A stretch of DNA of 17,318 nt from the UHGV virus genome UHGV-0074612; one strand, 5' to 3'. The first letter of the stretch is position 1, and each line of letters opens with the position of its first letter. Of the stretch, positions 7,328-17,268 are shown in pieces. The DNA is from a virus. The notes below the pieces were generated by a model, which did not search any database, had not been told where the DNA came from, and was given only the letters and a program-made list of their open reading frames with translations. The position numbers and the translations under genes are program-made.

Positions 7328-7464
7328 TGTTTGAGTTTAATATGGCAGAACTTCTTCGCCACCGCTGGGGGCGTCTGCGCTTATATCGTTTCCCCGGTTC
7401 TGTTTTGACCGATTACCGAATACTGAAGAATTACGCCAAAACCCTGACAGGAGCAGGAGTATGA
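7324..7464 (+). CDS. ylcG: Small protein, YlcG-like (46 aa)
   Basis: ATGA overlap with the rusA stop; translation [46 protein letters not shown] matches my recollection of DLP12 YlcG. Under the track size cutoff. Confidence 0.5.
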
Positions 7465-7549
7465 AGTCAGAGATAACAATCAACTAATACTGTTTTGTTG
7501 ATTTTTGCTTGTAATTGGCGTTTTGGTCTGATTTTTGTGGAGTAAGTTG

Positions 7550-7933
7550 ATGCGTGATATTCAGATGGTTCTTGAGCGTTGGGGAGCGTGGGCGGCTAAT
7601 AATCATGAAGATGTGACCTGGTCGTCCATTGCCGCCGGTTTTAAGGGATTAATTCCTTCAAAAGTAAAATCTCGCCCGCAATGTTGTGACGATGACGCGA
7701 TGATCATTTGCGGGTGCATGGCCCGCCTGAAAAAGAACAACAGCGATTTGCACGATTTATTAGTAGATTATTATATAGTCGGTATGACATTCATGTCACT
7801 GGCAGGTAAGCATTGCTGCTCTGATGGTTATATCGGGAAAAGGTTACAAAAGGCTGAGGGCATAATTGAAGGGATGTTAATGGCATTAGATATCCGGTTA
7901 GAGATGGATATCGTTGTTAATAACTCTAATTAA
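7550..7933 (+). CDS. Late-gene antiterminator Q (QuuD-like)
   Basis: Track ORF 7535..7933; ATG at 7550 after GGAGTAAG gives [24 protein letters not shown]... with a Cys-rich zinc-binding region, resembling the DLP12 QuuD antiterminator. Confidence 0.88.
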
Positions 7934-7955
7934 TACGCCAATTATTTACTAAAAG

Positions 7956-7984
7956 TTATTAAAAATGGGGCGTTGAAACGCCCC
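7956..7984 (-). terminator. Intrinsic terminator for the porin transcript (minus strand)
   Basis: GC-rich 7-bp stem GGGGCGT/ACGCCCC (7967-7973/7978-7984) with tetraloop, followed on the minus strand by ATTTTTAATAAC. Confidence 0.6.
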
Positions 7985-8121
7985 CAAAAATAAAGGGTAA
8001 TATATAACAGAAGGTTTATATAGTTAGAAGCAAGGTTGTGCTTCTAAAGGAAGTGGCTTGAGGGAGCCACTTATATGTTGGGGAGGCAAAGCCTCCCACA
8101 ACATATCTTTTAGTAATCAAA
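7956..8121 (-). ncRNA. Highly structured porin 3' region; candidate IpeX-like small RNA
   Basis: Four consecutive stem-loops between the porin stop (8122) and the terminator: 8077-8104, 8051-8072, 8024-8047, 7967-7984. I recall that the DLP12 sRNA IpeX maps just downstream of nmpC; exact boundaries not determinable here. Confidence 0.3.
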
Positions 8122-9204
8122 TTAGAACTGGTAAACCATACCTACAGCAACGATATCATCGGTAGCAACGCCAGATGCTTTCGTGAAATCGCTCTTATCA
8201 ATCAGGTTGATTTTGTAGTCAACAAAAGTGGACATATTTTTGTTGAAGTAATAGGTTGCACCTACATCAACATATTCAACCAGGTCCTGATCACCCCAAA
8301 CACCCAAGTCTTTTCCTTTAGAATGCAGGTAAGCAACGGATGGACGCAGGCCGAAGTCGAACTGATATTGTGCAACAGCTTCGAAGTTTTGTGCTTTGTT
8401 GGCAATATGGTTATTACCAAAAACAGTCATGTTCTGGGTTTCAGAATAGGTGGTGGCCAGATAGATGTTGTTCGCATCATATTTCAGACCAGCTGCCCAT
8501 ACTTCAGCATTTTGACCAGAAGCATTCAGACCGTTGTTACCGTAGATAACCTGATTATTAGTGCGATCAGATTTAGCATAGGTTGCACCCACGCCGAATC
8601 CTTCATACTCATAAGTAGTTGAGAAACCGAAACCATCGCCATTAGCTTCAGTTACTTCATTTCGGTCATTTTTGCCCTGATACTGAGCTGCAAAGTTCAG
8701 GCCATCAACCAGACCAAAGAAGTCGTTGTTACGATAAGTTGCAACACCTGTGGTGCGACCAGTCATGAATACATCTGTTTGGGTCCAGGTATCGCCACCG
8801 AATTCTGGCAGAACGTCGGTCCATGCACCGATGTCGTATGCTACACCGTAGTTACGGCCGTAATCGATGGAGCCGTAGTCACCGAATTTCAGGCCAGCGA
8901 AGGCAAGACGGGTTTTATCTTTGGAGGAACCTTGAGATTCAGCGCGGTTGCCTTTGAATTCATATTCCCACTGACCGAAACCAGTCAGTTGATCGTTGAT
9001 TTGGGTTTCACCTTTGAAGCCAAGACGGGCATAAGTAGTATCACCATCATCTGCATCATTAGAGGAGAAGTAGTGCTTAGCATTAACTTTCCCGTACAGA
9101 TCCAGCTTGTTACTGTCTTTATTATAAATTTCAGCTGCCTGAGCAGACATCGCCATCAGTACTGATGCAGCTACAGCAGAAATTGCCACTGTTAATTTTT
9201 TCAT
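8122..9204 (-). CDS. nmpC: OmpC/OmpF-family general porin, prophage-encoded (NmpC/Lc-like)
   Basis: 360-aa ORF with signal peptide [23 protein letters not shown] then AEIYNKD..., C-terminal VGMVYQF ending in Phe; located between Q and the holin on the opposite strand, as nmpC is in DLP12. Confidence 0.93.
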
Positions 9205-9632
9205 CGTGAGCCCTTTTTTTTGAACTATTATTAAAAAATGATGTCACTGCGCGATAAATATTCATCTAATCAATGTGAATATTTCAAGATGTAAGTTTTG
9301 GTTTCTCGTTTGATTTGTGAAGTAGATCTCTATTTTTATCTGAACTTTTTTCTATCGAATCCTATTCATGGCTCTTGACTGAATAAAAATAAATCTATTA
9401 GCCAATTTATATTAATGGCTGTTATTTATAAGTGCTCTATAATTTGAAGGTTCAATTTAAATTGACTAAAAATAACGCTGGAAATTATTTGTTGGTTATT
9501 TGTTGAGATTTGCTTATGTATTTGTAGTGGTGTTTTCAATACTCGGTAGCATTCTCGCAAATATCATTTAGTGGTTTACGTACGTAAAAAATTGGTTATG
9601 CTGTTAAGAGTGGTTACTTCGTCACACAGCTT

Positions 9633-9666
9633 AAACCCGCCGTCGAGCGGGTTTTTCCATTTTTTG
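9633..9666 (+). terminator. Rho-independent terminator inside the porin-holin intergenic region (tR'-like)
   Basis: 8-bp stem AAACCCGC/GCGGGTTT (9633-9640/9647-9654), 6-nt loop, then TTCCATTTTTTG. No plus-strand gene ends upstream of it. Confidence 0.7.
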
Positions 9667-9777
9667 AGTCTCGATATTAGCTGATAACCCAATACCTGAG
9701 TTATTCACTGACTCCGAGTCTGTTACGTTTCGTAGTATTCCCTCAATTTACACCCGCTTTGTCTGCGAGGTGGGGTT

Positions 9778-9993
9778 ATGAAATCCATGGATAAGTTAAC
9801 AACGGGTGTCGCCTATGGCACCTCAGCAGGTAGTGCCGGGTACTGGTTTTTACAGCTGCTCGATAAAGTCACGCCCTCACAGTGGGCAGCAATAGGTGTG
9901 CTGGGTAGCCTGGTATTTGGCCTGCTGACGTACCTGACAAACCTTTATTTCAAGATTAAAGAAGATAAGCGCAAGGCTGCGAGAGGTGAATAA
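9778..9993 (+). CDS. Phage-21-type pinholin (S21/EssD-like) with dual start motif
   Basis: 71-aa [29 protein letters not shown]...; Met1/Met4 dual start, two TMDs, charged C-terminus; GAGGTGG upstream. Confidence 0.92.
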
Positions 9994-10490
9994 TGCCTCC
10001 ATCATTACGAAAAGCCGTTGCTGCTGCTATTGGTGGCGGAGCAATTGCTATAGCATCAGTGTTAATCACTGGCCCAAGTGGTAACGATGGTCTGGAAGGT
10101 GTCAGCTACATACCATACAAAGATATTGTTGGTGTATGGACTGTATGTCACGGGCATACAGGAAAAGACATCATGCTCGGTAAAACGTATACCAAAGCAG
10201 AATGCAAAGCCCTCCTGAATAAAGACCTTGCCACGGTCGCCAGACAAATTAACCCGTACATAAAAGTTGATATACCGGAAACAACGCGCGGCGCTCTTTA
10301 CTCGTTCGTTTACAACGTGGGCGCTGGCAATTTCAGAACATCGACACTTCTTCGCAAAATAAACCAGGGCGATATCAAAGGCGCATGTGATCAGCTACGT
10401 CGCTGGACATATGCTGGCGGTAAGCAATGGAAAGGTCTCATGACTCGTCGTGAGATTGAGCGTGAAATCTGTTTGTGGGGTCAGCAATGA
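9993..10490 (+). CDS. SAR endolysin (phage-21 R / RrrD-like lysozyme)
   Basis: 165-aa ORF with N-terminal Gly/Ala-rich signal-anchor-release segment [20 protein letters not shown] followed by a lysozyme domain; start overlaps the holin stop. Confidence 0.92.
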
Positions 10491-10945
10491 ACAGAGTAAC
10501 CGCGATTATCTCCGCTCTGGTTATCTGCATCATCGTCTGCCTGTCATGGGCTGTTAATCATTACCGTGATAACGCCATTACCTACAAAGCCCAGCGCGAC
10601 AAAAATGCCAGAGAACTGGAGAAGGCGAACGCCACCATCGCTGACATGCGGAAGCGTCAACGTGATGTAGCAGAACTCGACGCAAGATACACAAAGGAGC
10701 TTGCTGATGCTAACGCGACTATCGAAAGTCTCCGTGCTGATGTTTCTGCTGGGCGTAAGCGCCTGCAAGTCGCCGCCACCTGTGCAAAGTCAACGACCGG
10801 AGCCAGCGGCATGGGCGATGGAGAAAGCCCAGGACTTACAGCAGATGCTGAACTCAATTATTACCGTCTCCGAAGTGGAATCGACAAGATAACCGCGCAG
10901 GTTAACTACCTGCAGGAATACATCAGGACGCAATGCCTGAAATAA
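10487..10945 (+). CDS. Spanin inner-membrane subunit Rz
   Basis: ATG at 10487 (ATGA overlap with endolysin stop) gives [21 protein letters not shown]..., an N-terminal TMD followed by a periplasmic coiled-coil-like region. Confidence 0.88.
10701..10892 (+). CDS. Spanin outer-membrane lipoprotein Rz1, embedded in Rz in the +1 frame
   Basis: 63-aa ORF wholly inside Rz; signal peptide with lipobox VSAC followed by a proline-rich segment [13 protein letters not shown]. Confidence 0.8.
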
Positions 10946-15883: not shown

Positions 15884-16687
15884 AAGGCACATTACAGAAA
15901 TGGAGGTCTGTTCTACCGTTCCTCAAGAGATGGCTATGGTTTTGAGGAAGACTGGGCAGAAGTTTATACCTCGAAAAATCTTCCACCAGAAAGCTACCCA
16001 GTCGGCGCACCAATCCCGTGGCCATCAGATACCGTTCCGTCTGGTTATGCCCTGATGCAGGGGCAGACTTTTGACAAATCTGCATACCCGAAACTTGCAG
16101 CCGCTTATCCGTCAGGCGTGATCCCTGATATGCGTGGCTGGACGATTAAGGGCAAACCTGCCAGTGGTCGCGCCGTATTGTCTCAGGAACAGGACGGCAT
16201 TAAATCGCACACCCACAGCGCCAGCGCATCCAGTACGGATTTGGGGACGAAAACCACATCGTCGTTTGATTACGGAACCAAATCCACGAATAACACCGGG
16301 GCGCATACCCATAGTATTAGCGGGACCGCAAATAGTGCCGGCGCGCACCAACACAAGAGTTCCGGTGCATTTGGTGGCACGAACACGAGCATTTTCCCTA
16401 ATGGTTATACCGCGATTTCAAATCCAAGCGCGGGGATTATGAGCACAACAAGCGGTAGTGGTCAGACTCGTAATGCAGGGAAGACATCATCAGATGGTGC
16501 TCATACCCACTCGCTGTCCGGCACTGCTGCAAGCGCAGGCGCACATGCACATACTGTCGGTATTGGTGCTCATACGCACTCCGTTGCGATTGGCTCACAT
16601 GGACACACCATCACCGTTAACGCTGCGGGTAACGCGGAAAACACCGTCAAAAACATCGCATTTAACTATATTGTGAGGCTTGCATAA
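15884..16687 (+). pseudogene. Side tail fibre (Stf-like) C-terminal region, fused in frame to the J fragment
   Basis: ...[45 protein letters not shown]... with repeated Gly/His boxes ([30 protein letters not shown]) and C-terminus [11 protein letters not shown], typical of lambda Stf and T4 gp37-type fibre tips. Confidence 0.8.
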
Positions 16688-17268
16688 TGGCATTCAGAAT
16701 GAGTGAACAAGCACGGACCATAAAAATTTATAATCTGCTGGCCGGAACTAATGAATTTATTGGTGAAGGTGACGCATATATTCCGCCTCATACAGGTCTG
16801 CCAGCAAACAGTACCGATATTGCACCACCAGATATTCCGGCAGGCTTCGTGGCTGTTTTCAACAGTGATGAGGCATCGTGGCATCTCGTTGAAGACCATC
16901 GGGGGAAAACGGTTTATGACGTAGCGTCAGGGGACGAGTTATTTATTTCTGAACTCGGTCCGTTACCGGAAAATGTTACCTGGTTATCGCCGGGAGGGGA
17001 ATATCAGAAGTGGAACGGCACAGCCTGGGTGAAGGATACGGAAGCAGAAAAACTGTTCCGGATCCGGGAGGCGGAAGAAACAAAAAACAGCCTGATGCAG
17101 ATAGCCAGTGAGCATATAGCGCCGCTTCAGGATGCTGTGGATCTGGAGATCGCAACGGAGGAAGAAACCTTGTTGCTGGAAGCCTGGAAAAAGTATCGGG
17201 TGTTGCTGAACCGTGTTGATACATCAACTGCACCGGATATTGAATGGCCAGTAGCACCTATAGGGTAA
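16687..17268 (+). CDS. tfa: Tail fibre assembly protein Tfa
   Basis: 193-aa [42 protein letters not shown]...; start overlaps the stop of the upstream tail-fibre ORF; lambda Tfa-like length and sequence as I recall. Confidence 0.9.

Follow-up and report, generated by a model that had tools for sequence, protein, structure and literature searches.

Where does late transcription begin in a lambdoid prophage when a porin gene on the opposite strand separates the antiterminator gene Q from the lysis genes? The question is raised by a 17,318-nt stretch of the virus genome UHGV-0074612 (the window, meaning this whole stretch), which its open reading frame (ORF) map and Pfam matches identify as a cryptic lambdoid prophage of the DLP12/PA-2/434B type. 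The gene order is Q, porin (minus strand), a 573-bp spacer (9205–9777) and an S21-type lysis cassette. An initial annotation of the spacer had recognised an intrinsic terminator in it, and had proposed that a late switch of the lambda kind starts at promoter motifs near 9438 or 9462. The segment 9574–9656 is probably the late-gene switch of the Q encoded at 7535–7933, housed in the same spacer as a divergent porin promoter.

The segment was located through homology to Shiga toxin (Stx) phages. The Q protein of the window shares 78–81% amino acid identity with the 144-amino acid (aa) Q of the Stx phages 933W, Sp5 and BP-4795, and gives a distant match to the Q21 structures 6p18 and 6jnx. When the interval from Q to stx of BP-4795 was compared with the window by sensitive blastn, two matches resulted, one reaching through Q to 7882 and the other at 9574–9656, the latter with 78% identity over 83 nt. 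No match to that interval was obtained by blastn in 7934–8121 or in 9205–9573. The proposal of the initial annotation that the porin-holin spacer holds a late switch, with the hairpin as its terminator, is therefore borne out, since homology to the late promoter PR′ of the Stx phages is found at 9574–9656 only. The matching block of 933W is annotated with a putative pR′ (TTTACG-N16-TATCAT), qut and a first terminator. In the window, 9574–9656 (plus strand) is the only block of the spacer common to Stx phages and porin-less phages, and is referred to here as the conserved late-promoter/terminator cassette. Because the Q homology to 933W and BP-4795 stops at about 7882, the last ~16 residues of Q differ.

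The transcription start was placed with the data of strain Sakai, where the PR′ start, determined by differential RNA sequencing (dRNA-seq), and the 3′ end of tR′, determined by Term-seq, lie 258 nt apart (Sy et al., 2020). In the Sakai sequence, the sole fit to 258 nt is a start 7 nt after TATCAT (position 746 of locus L006) and a 3′ end within the second terminator's U tract (L006 position 1003). Under this fit, both published coordinates are offset by 142 nt from the current record. Alignment to 933W gives the window a predicted −35 hexamer TTTACG (9575–9580, plus strand) and a predicted −10 hexamer TATGCT (9597–9602, plus strand), the counterpart of TATCAT; the pattern TAnnnT is fixed at this place in nearly all cassette variants. 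Transfer of the Sp5 dRNA-seq start by homology then predicts that PR′ starts on the plus strand at A9609, accurate to about 2 nt, which is 577229 in K-12 DLP12 (NC_000913.3). The hairpin lies at +25 to +46 relative to this position. Since a start near A9609 is 24 nt before the hairpin, the terminated RNA would be about 45–57 nt, instead of the 6S-like RNA of 150–220 nt that had been expected. The possibility that TATCAT/TATGCT is a pause element instead of a −10 hexamer, an idea derived from a MAFFT alignment to the sigma70-dependent pause element (SDPE) of phage 21, was also considered, and was rejected because a start upstream of TATCAT cannot give the 258 nt of Sakai.

The association of the cassette with Q was surveyed by an exact scan of IMG/VR with the 15-mer TAAGAGTGGTTACWT, which returned 120 loci. 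About 97 of these are full cassettes and about 22 are chance matches to the 15-mer, which were set aside; a stricter regular expression also lost two real cassettes (L016 and L097). All true cassettes whose locus extends 1.4 kb or more upstream are preceded by a Q gene of family PF06530, and the encoded proteins are 40–100% identical to the Q of the window. The apparent exception, L077, has only the last 31 aa of Q on the locus, about 3.9 kb upstream. Overall, the Q stop codon precedes the start by 9 nt to about 3.9 kb. This distance falls into classes of 9–50 nt (21 nt in the Stx phages), about 630, about 800–865 and 1182 nt, followed by longer ones of 1435–1692 nt (1672–1691 nt in porin contexts) and 2255–2465 nt. 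The gaps hold unrelated genes, mostly on the minus strand, such as those for porin, KAP NTPase, esterase and orphan proteins, and in every contig with a gap the cassette lies downstream of the cargo genes. For instance, PhiR55_1 encodes a Q 83% identical to that of the window and carries a different cargo gene, followed by a cassette of 85.5% identity over 83 nt whose homology is limited at 9574 and 9656. Homology of E. coli NH-21 to the window also stops at 9656. The recurrence of both limits in PhiR55_1, and of the 9656 end in NH-21, means that the block behaves like a self-contained unit.

The junction between Q and the late promoter (7883–9573 in the window, and loci L018–L124) is a recurrent cargo insertion site. 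An alpha/beta hydrolase, a DnaD-like protein and several orphan proteins are also among its cargo. Compared with 933W, the insertion in the window also replaced the last ~16 codons of Q.

A perfect 14-bp inverted repeat, TTTACGTACGTAAA, occupies 9575–9588 (−34 to −21) and overlaps the −35 hexamer. When the Q proteins were clustered at 85% identity, 11 groups resulted, and an inverted repeat at the same centre, −27.5, is present in 11 of the 12 Q-cluster representatives. The sequence of the repeat varies with the Q clade. It is TTTACG(TA/AT)CGTAAA in cl0, which includes the window and 933W, GCGGTCCGC in cl1 and cl3, GCGTACGC in cl2, TGTTATAACA in cl4, GCGGGCCGC in cl5, TGGAATTCCA in cl6 and cl7, and ATTCGTTACGAAT in cl8 and cl9. 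The groups with a common repeat (cl6/cl7, cl8/cl9 and cl1/cl3) are the closest Q relatives, at 69–74% identity. Its position corresponds to that of the Q-binding element (QBE) of lambda and phage 21, between −35 and −10. Judged from these sequences, a repeat that co-varies with the Q clade looks like a Q-binding element with co-evolving specificity, and 9575–9588 is the candidate in the window.

The region downstream of the −10 hexamer is conserved as well. There, AGTGGTTACTTCGCCACACAGCTTAA is almost invariant in all Q groups; the 15-mer pattern fixes the first 11 nt, and hence only the rest of AGTGGTTACTTCGCCACACAGCTTAA counts as evidence. A small 5′ leader hairpin (GUGG/UCAC, +2 to +17; 9610–9625, plus strand) is predicted by folding inside the nearly invariant 9609–9634, and variants with C-to-U changes retain G·U pairs. 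In 45 of the 46 distinct leaders, folding predicts a small hairpin at the 5′ end and, within +60, a terminator hairpin with a U tract after it. The terminators have at least five unrelated stem sequences at the same place, and a compensatory change from G-C to A-U distinguishes the stems CCCUGCC/GGCGGGG and UCCUACC/GGUGGGG. Variability was also counted over the spacer in 26 distinct porin-linked variants, where 15 of 25 columns vary in 9355–9379 and 17 of 25 in 9430–9454, as against 1 of 50 in 9580–9629 and none in 9605–9629. The second 'CRP site' of the 1986 PA-2 record (J02580, 1067–1087) equals window 9609–9629, in the invariant initial transcribed region, and only one of its half-sites matches well. 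As 9609–9629 is conserved in porin-less phages, its conservation probably does not come from porin regulation.

The terminator itself (tR′-like; 9633–9665, plus strand) comprises a stem-loop at 9633–9654 and U tracts at 9652–9656 and 9660–9665. In the terminator scan the stem has 8 pairs, 5 of them G-C, with a 6-nt loop, and is followed by TTCCATTTTTT; RNAfold gives the identical hairpin, the sequence after the stem being UUUUUCCAUUUUUU. The intrinsic terminator of the initial annotation, placed in a non-coding spacer, is thus confirmed. The spacer is 34% G+C (28.7% in 9205–9573), as against 47.9% over the entire window; the longest ORF found on its two strands has 44 aa, and the hairpin is not preceded by the end of any plus-strand gene. 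Two small ORFs over the cassette (37 aa, 9571–9684, plus strand; 38 aa, 9576–9692, minus strand) were set aside; the nucleotide conservation persists where the frames differ. Three terminator-like sites were found in 7400–10100 against 2.4 expected from shuffles, and the z-score of the leader fold is −1.4. The hairpin alone is therefore not beyond chance and is convincing only because of the comparative evidence. The scan found no further terminator between the hairpin and the holin gene. A search of 9100–9900 against Rfam at E ≤ 1 returned Trp_leader only, with E = 0.15, which was taken as chance.

The Stx phages also have a textbook intrinsic terminator at PR′ +25 to +49 (L006 770–795 in Sakai Sp5; L004 1707–1729 in 933W). 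The published 3′ end of tR′/StxS is at +258, and the proximal hairpin is not discussed (Sy et al., 2020). Either termination at this hairpin is inefficient so near the start, or the product of ~50 nt is missed by the sequencing libraries.

From these elements the following course of events is proposed. The spacer would contain two back-to-back control regions, of which the left third would be the divergent porin promoter. From TTTACG-N16-TATGCT, host sigma70 polymerase would initiate constitutively near A9609. In the absence of Q, it would stop at the hairpin and U tract (+25 to +57), a leader of ~45–57 nt would be released, and the holin, endolysin and spanin genes would remain silent. Once Q is made, it would bind TTTACGTACGTAAA (−34 to −21) and load onto polymerase that is still, presumably by pausing, in the conserved initial transcribed region. 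The Q-modified polymerase would then pass the terminator and enter the lysis genes. The porin gene would be a cargo insertion that moved Q 1.7 kb from its promoter.

Several observations weigh against this proposal. The start of the element was placed by homology transfer from Stx phages, and TTTACG-N16-TATGCT matches the consensus at 8 of 12 positions, which is under the threshold of the sigma70 scan; that scan called no plus-strand sigma70 promoter anywhere in the spacer. No convincing SDPE is visible, as +7 to +12 reads TACTTC, lacking the final T, versus TACATT in 933W; AAGAGT at −3 to +3 is an alternative pause candidate. The conservation of +1 to +11 is circular, being fixed by the 15-mer used in the scan, and the co-variation of repeat and Q could partly reflect co-inheritance. 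The substitution G9649T (GCGGG to GCTGG, in the 3′ arm of the stem) occurs in 12 of the 26 distinct spacer variants, including PA-2; with it, the leader is predicted to fold at −8 instead of about −14 kcal/mol. As the substitution weakens the stem, the switch may be leaky in many prophages. The homologous proximal hairpin of the Stx phages lets some transcripts pass, since the 258-nt RNA is seen. Finally, published work on DLP12 locates the Q-responsive essD promoter, as one of sigmaE type, about 355 nt upstream of the start predicted at MG1655 577229. Text searches of the literature for the start and 3′ end predicted in K-12, by coordinate, gave unrelated papers only, and the 3′-end tables of Adams (2021) list neither these coordinates nor essD.

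The published essD start leads to the alternative that survives best. A sigmaE-like motif, GAACT-N17-TCACT, at 9222–9248 (plus strand) corresponds to the published 'essDp' of DLP12, with +1 near 9254. The 'SRRz promoter' was cloned as −121 to +650, numbered after Rueggeberg (2015), and the primers put +1 at MG1655 576874 (window about 9254), 6 nt after the motif (Pasqua, 2021). The same paper cites control of the DLP12 lysis operon by Q, RpoE and Hha. Together with the conservation of the motif in the 26 variants, this favours a reading in which essDp is the relevant promoter and the target of Q action, the hairpin attenuates a leader of ~400 nt, and the cassette promoter is weak or silent. 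Such a role of essDp is compatible with a late switch at 9574–9656, yet we regard it as unlikely. The motif lies within the porin 5′ untranslated region (UTR), whose conservation has other causes, and porin-less phages of the same Q type do not have it; on both counts it cannot be the ancestral target of Q. Moreover, known Q proteins load within a few tens of nt from the start, beside their DNA site, and the essDp region has no Q-clade-specific repeat. Nevertheless, essDp may well exist and feed the same terminator. The essD promoter was reportedly first proposed in silico. The curated 434B record has no pR′ in the spacer, though the same authors annotated the phage 21 pR′ in detail.

The promoters put forward by the initial annotation, about 170–200 nt upstream of the hairpin, fare less well. 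It had taken PR′ to be the TATAAT at 9438–9443 or the pair TTGACT-N17-TTATTT at 9462–9490 (TTGACT at 9462–9467), both on the plus strand, giving a 6S-like RNA of 150–220 nt that carries qut and ends at the hairpin. The strings are indeed present, TATAAT is kept in 23 of the 26 spacer variants, and the hairpin at 9633–9654 would stop any plus-strand transcript. However, TATAAT has no usable −35 hexamer, TTATTT lacks the essential A at position 2, and the scan reports neither. In TTGACT, 4 of the 6 positions are variable, and K-12 DLP12 has CCGGCT there. Both motifs lie outside the conserved cassette, in the most variable segment of the spacer (9430–9479), which 933W and PhiR55_1, porin-less phages sharing the Q type and the cassette, do not have. 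The homologue of the mapped PR′ is instead 9575–9602, with its start near 9609, so that a promoter at 9438 or 9462 is improbable.

Two further readings are very hard to sustain. In the canonical lambdoid layout the promoter directly follows Q, as it does where it abuts Q in the Stx phages and phage 21, and Q-modified polymerase starting in 7934–8121 would cross the porin gene antisense, with the hairpin as one of several terminators; but no cassette, inverted repeat or promoter-like site was found in 7934–8121, its hairpins serve the converging genes, and the Q-linked cassette is downstream of the cargo in every gapped contig. The hairpin as an insulator or orphan small-RNA terminator, unrelated to Q and shielding the lysis genes from stray transcription, would agree with a terminator that alone is not beyond chance and matches no Rfam family, but is just as poorly compatible with a block that follows Q in all contexts sampled, and with related phages having different terminators at the same place.

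In addition to the late switch, the spacer holds the divergent porin promoter, as the initial annotation had supposed. The promoter region (PnmpC/Plc), the 5′ UTR and regulator sites cover 9205–9414 on the minus strand according to the literature, with approximate limits. The promoter lies no more than about 200 bp from the porin ATG, with two sites for CRP together with OmpR, IHF and MprA sites, and PnmpC is lost on deleting −199 to −210 relative to the nmpC ATG (PMC11677980). In J02580, a CRP site is annotated that corresponds to about 9313–9333 of the window. An OmpR-like string noted by the initial annotation exists, at 9289–9305, about 4 nt from where it had been put; the published OmpR site in the porin promoter gives the idea a precedent.

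The genes flanking the spacer were assigned as follows. Q (7535–7933, plus strand) matches Pfam PF06530 with E = 1.2e-53 and belongs to the QuuD/Q933 clade. The porin gene (8122–9204, minus strand; Porin_1, E = 3.6e-152) is of the lc/nmpC type, its counterparts being annotated lc in PA-2 and nmpC in 434B and MG1655, and represents cargo ('moron') between Q and the late promoter. Between the stop codons of Q and porin, 7967–8100 contains four hairpins. That at 7967–7984 reads as the porin terminator because its T run is on the minus strand only, and no clear plus-strand terminator after Q was seen within 7967–8100. Downstream of the terminator, the holin leader (9657–9777, plus strand) ends with the Shine-Dalgarno sequence GAGGTGGGG directly 5′ of the ATG, a ribosome-binding site (RBS) annotated in 434B. 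At about 9730, between the terminator and the holin RBS, a 16–17-nt indel occurs; the insertion is present in 18 of the 26 variants and not in the window. The lysis genes, assigned by Pfam and the 434B annotation, encode an S21-type pinholin (9778–9993), a signal-arrest-release (SAR) endolysin (9993–10490) and an Rz spanin (10475–10945), all on the plus strand.

To the left of Q, the ORF map and Pfam show integrase, exo/RecT, Dam, NinX and RusA, and to the right of the lysis genes there remain just KilA-N, DUF1398 and a J-like tail-fibre fragment. The window ORFs that were scanned included none for immunity, replication, head or tail-shaft functions. The prophage is heavily deleted, with integrase and exo/RecT directly joined to the Dam-NinX-RusA-Q region. 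Over the whole window, Rfam at the gathering threshold returned IS009 only (17030–17228, plus strand; 221 bits versus a gathering score of 117), inside an ORF at 16687–17268 downstream of the tail-fibre gene. The spacer is 98–99% identical to that of phages such as PhiR26_1 and 434B, 98.3% to K-12 DLP12 and 93.5% to the PA-2 lc sequence of 1986. It is present in 2662 of 5426 complete E. coli genomes, and 434B is a viable phage that uses the DLP12-derived Q, late promoter and lysis segment.

A wider generalisation is offered tentatively, at somewhat less than even chances. The QuuD/Q933 branch of PF06530 might use a symmetric, clade-specific repeat centred at −27.5 as its Q-binding element, whereas that of Q21 consists of direct repeats. 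Coupled to this symmetric repeat would be a near-invariant 25-nt initial transcribed region with a 5′ hairpin, as well as a terminator within 60 nt, and the junction of Q and cassette would be a hot spot for minus-strand cargo. If this is true, the literature places the late promoter of K-12 DLP12 about 355 nt upstream of its actual position. This is of relevance to the effects of the DLP12 lysis cassette on biofilm, vesicles and envelope stress, where the promoter is currently taken as a sigmaE site. The module would decide lysis-gene expression in a very common E. coli prophage family, and a Q-responsive promoter at 9575–9609 is a precise and testable target. In this Q family, for which a DNA site is defined in phage 21 only, the clade-specific repeats would amount to a natural series of specificities. 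Tests would be worthwhile for the repeats, for the hot spot of cargo insertion between Q and PR′, and for the DLP12 late promoter, which has likely been misplaced. A constitutive RNA of ~50 nt is also predicted, of the kind that became the StxS regulator in the Stx phages.

Among known systems, the Stx phages 933W, Sp5 and BP-4795 are the closest, with Q of the same clade and a homologous 83 bp in which the −35 hexamer with the inverted repeat and the −10 hexamer are followed by GATAAGAGTGGTTAC around the start and by the proximal hairpin and U tract. Their promoter overlaps the 3′ end of Q, with 21 nt from stop to start, whereas that of the window lies 1.67 kb away behind the porin gene. The window has TATGCT where they have TATCAT, and GTAC at the centre of the repeat where they have GATC. 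Compared with the StxS locus, the window is without the second terminator at +258 and the StxS sequence, the homology ending at 9656. In Sakai, the 74 nt before the second terminator, which belong to StxS, contain CCCUGUAACGAAG, which resembles the rpoS-pairing seed of DsrA. The resemblance would fit published work in which StxS is stated to use one rpoS seed in common with DsrA, ArcZ and RprA for pairing (Sy et al., 2020). tRNA genes between Q and the lysis genes, as in 933W and phage 21, are absent from the window.

Phage 21 offers the same short-leader layout. Its Q is also of PF06530, its QBE lies between −35 and −10, its terminator ends at about +50, and, like the window, it has an S21-type pinholin and a SAR endolysin downstream; pR′, QBE, SDPE and terminator are given in its curated record. 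However, the similarity of the Q proteins is distant only, and there is no homology of the promoter DNA. The QBE of Q21 consists of two direct repeats of TGAGCA at about −26 to −12, which are not found in the window, where an inverted repeat is centred at −27.5 instead. The SDPE of phage 21 is clear (TAAGCT at +2 to +7), and none is obvious in the window.

Lambda follows the same logic, namely a constitutive late promoter, early termination, loading of Q at a site embedded in the promoter, and readthrough into S, R and Rz. It differs in that its Q belongs to the unrelated family PF03589, its leader is 194 nt in comparison with about 50 nt, and its promoter is adjacent to Q. DLP12 essDp, PA-2 lc and DLP12 nmpC, in turn, are the same locus as the window, and Q-dependent control of DLP12 essD-rrrD-rzpD is reported (cited in Pasqua, 2021). 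The element described here is a member of the known Q933/QuuD-type PR′ family, situated in a locus that was sequenced long ago.

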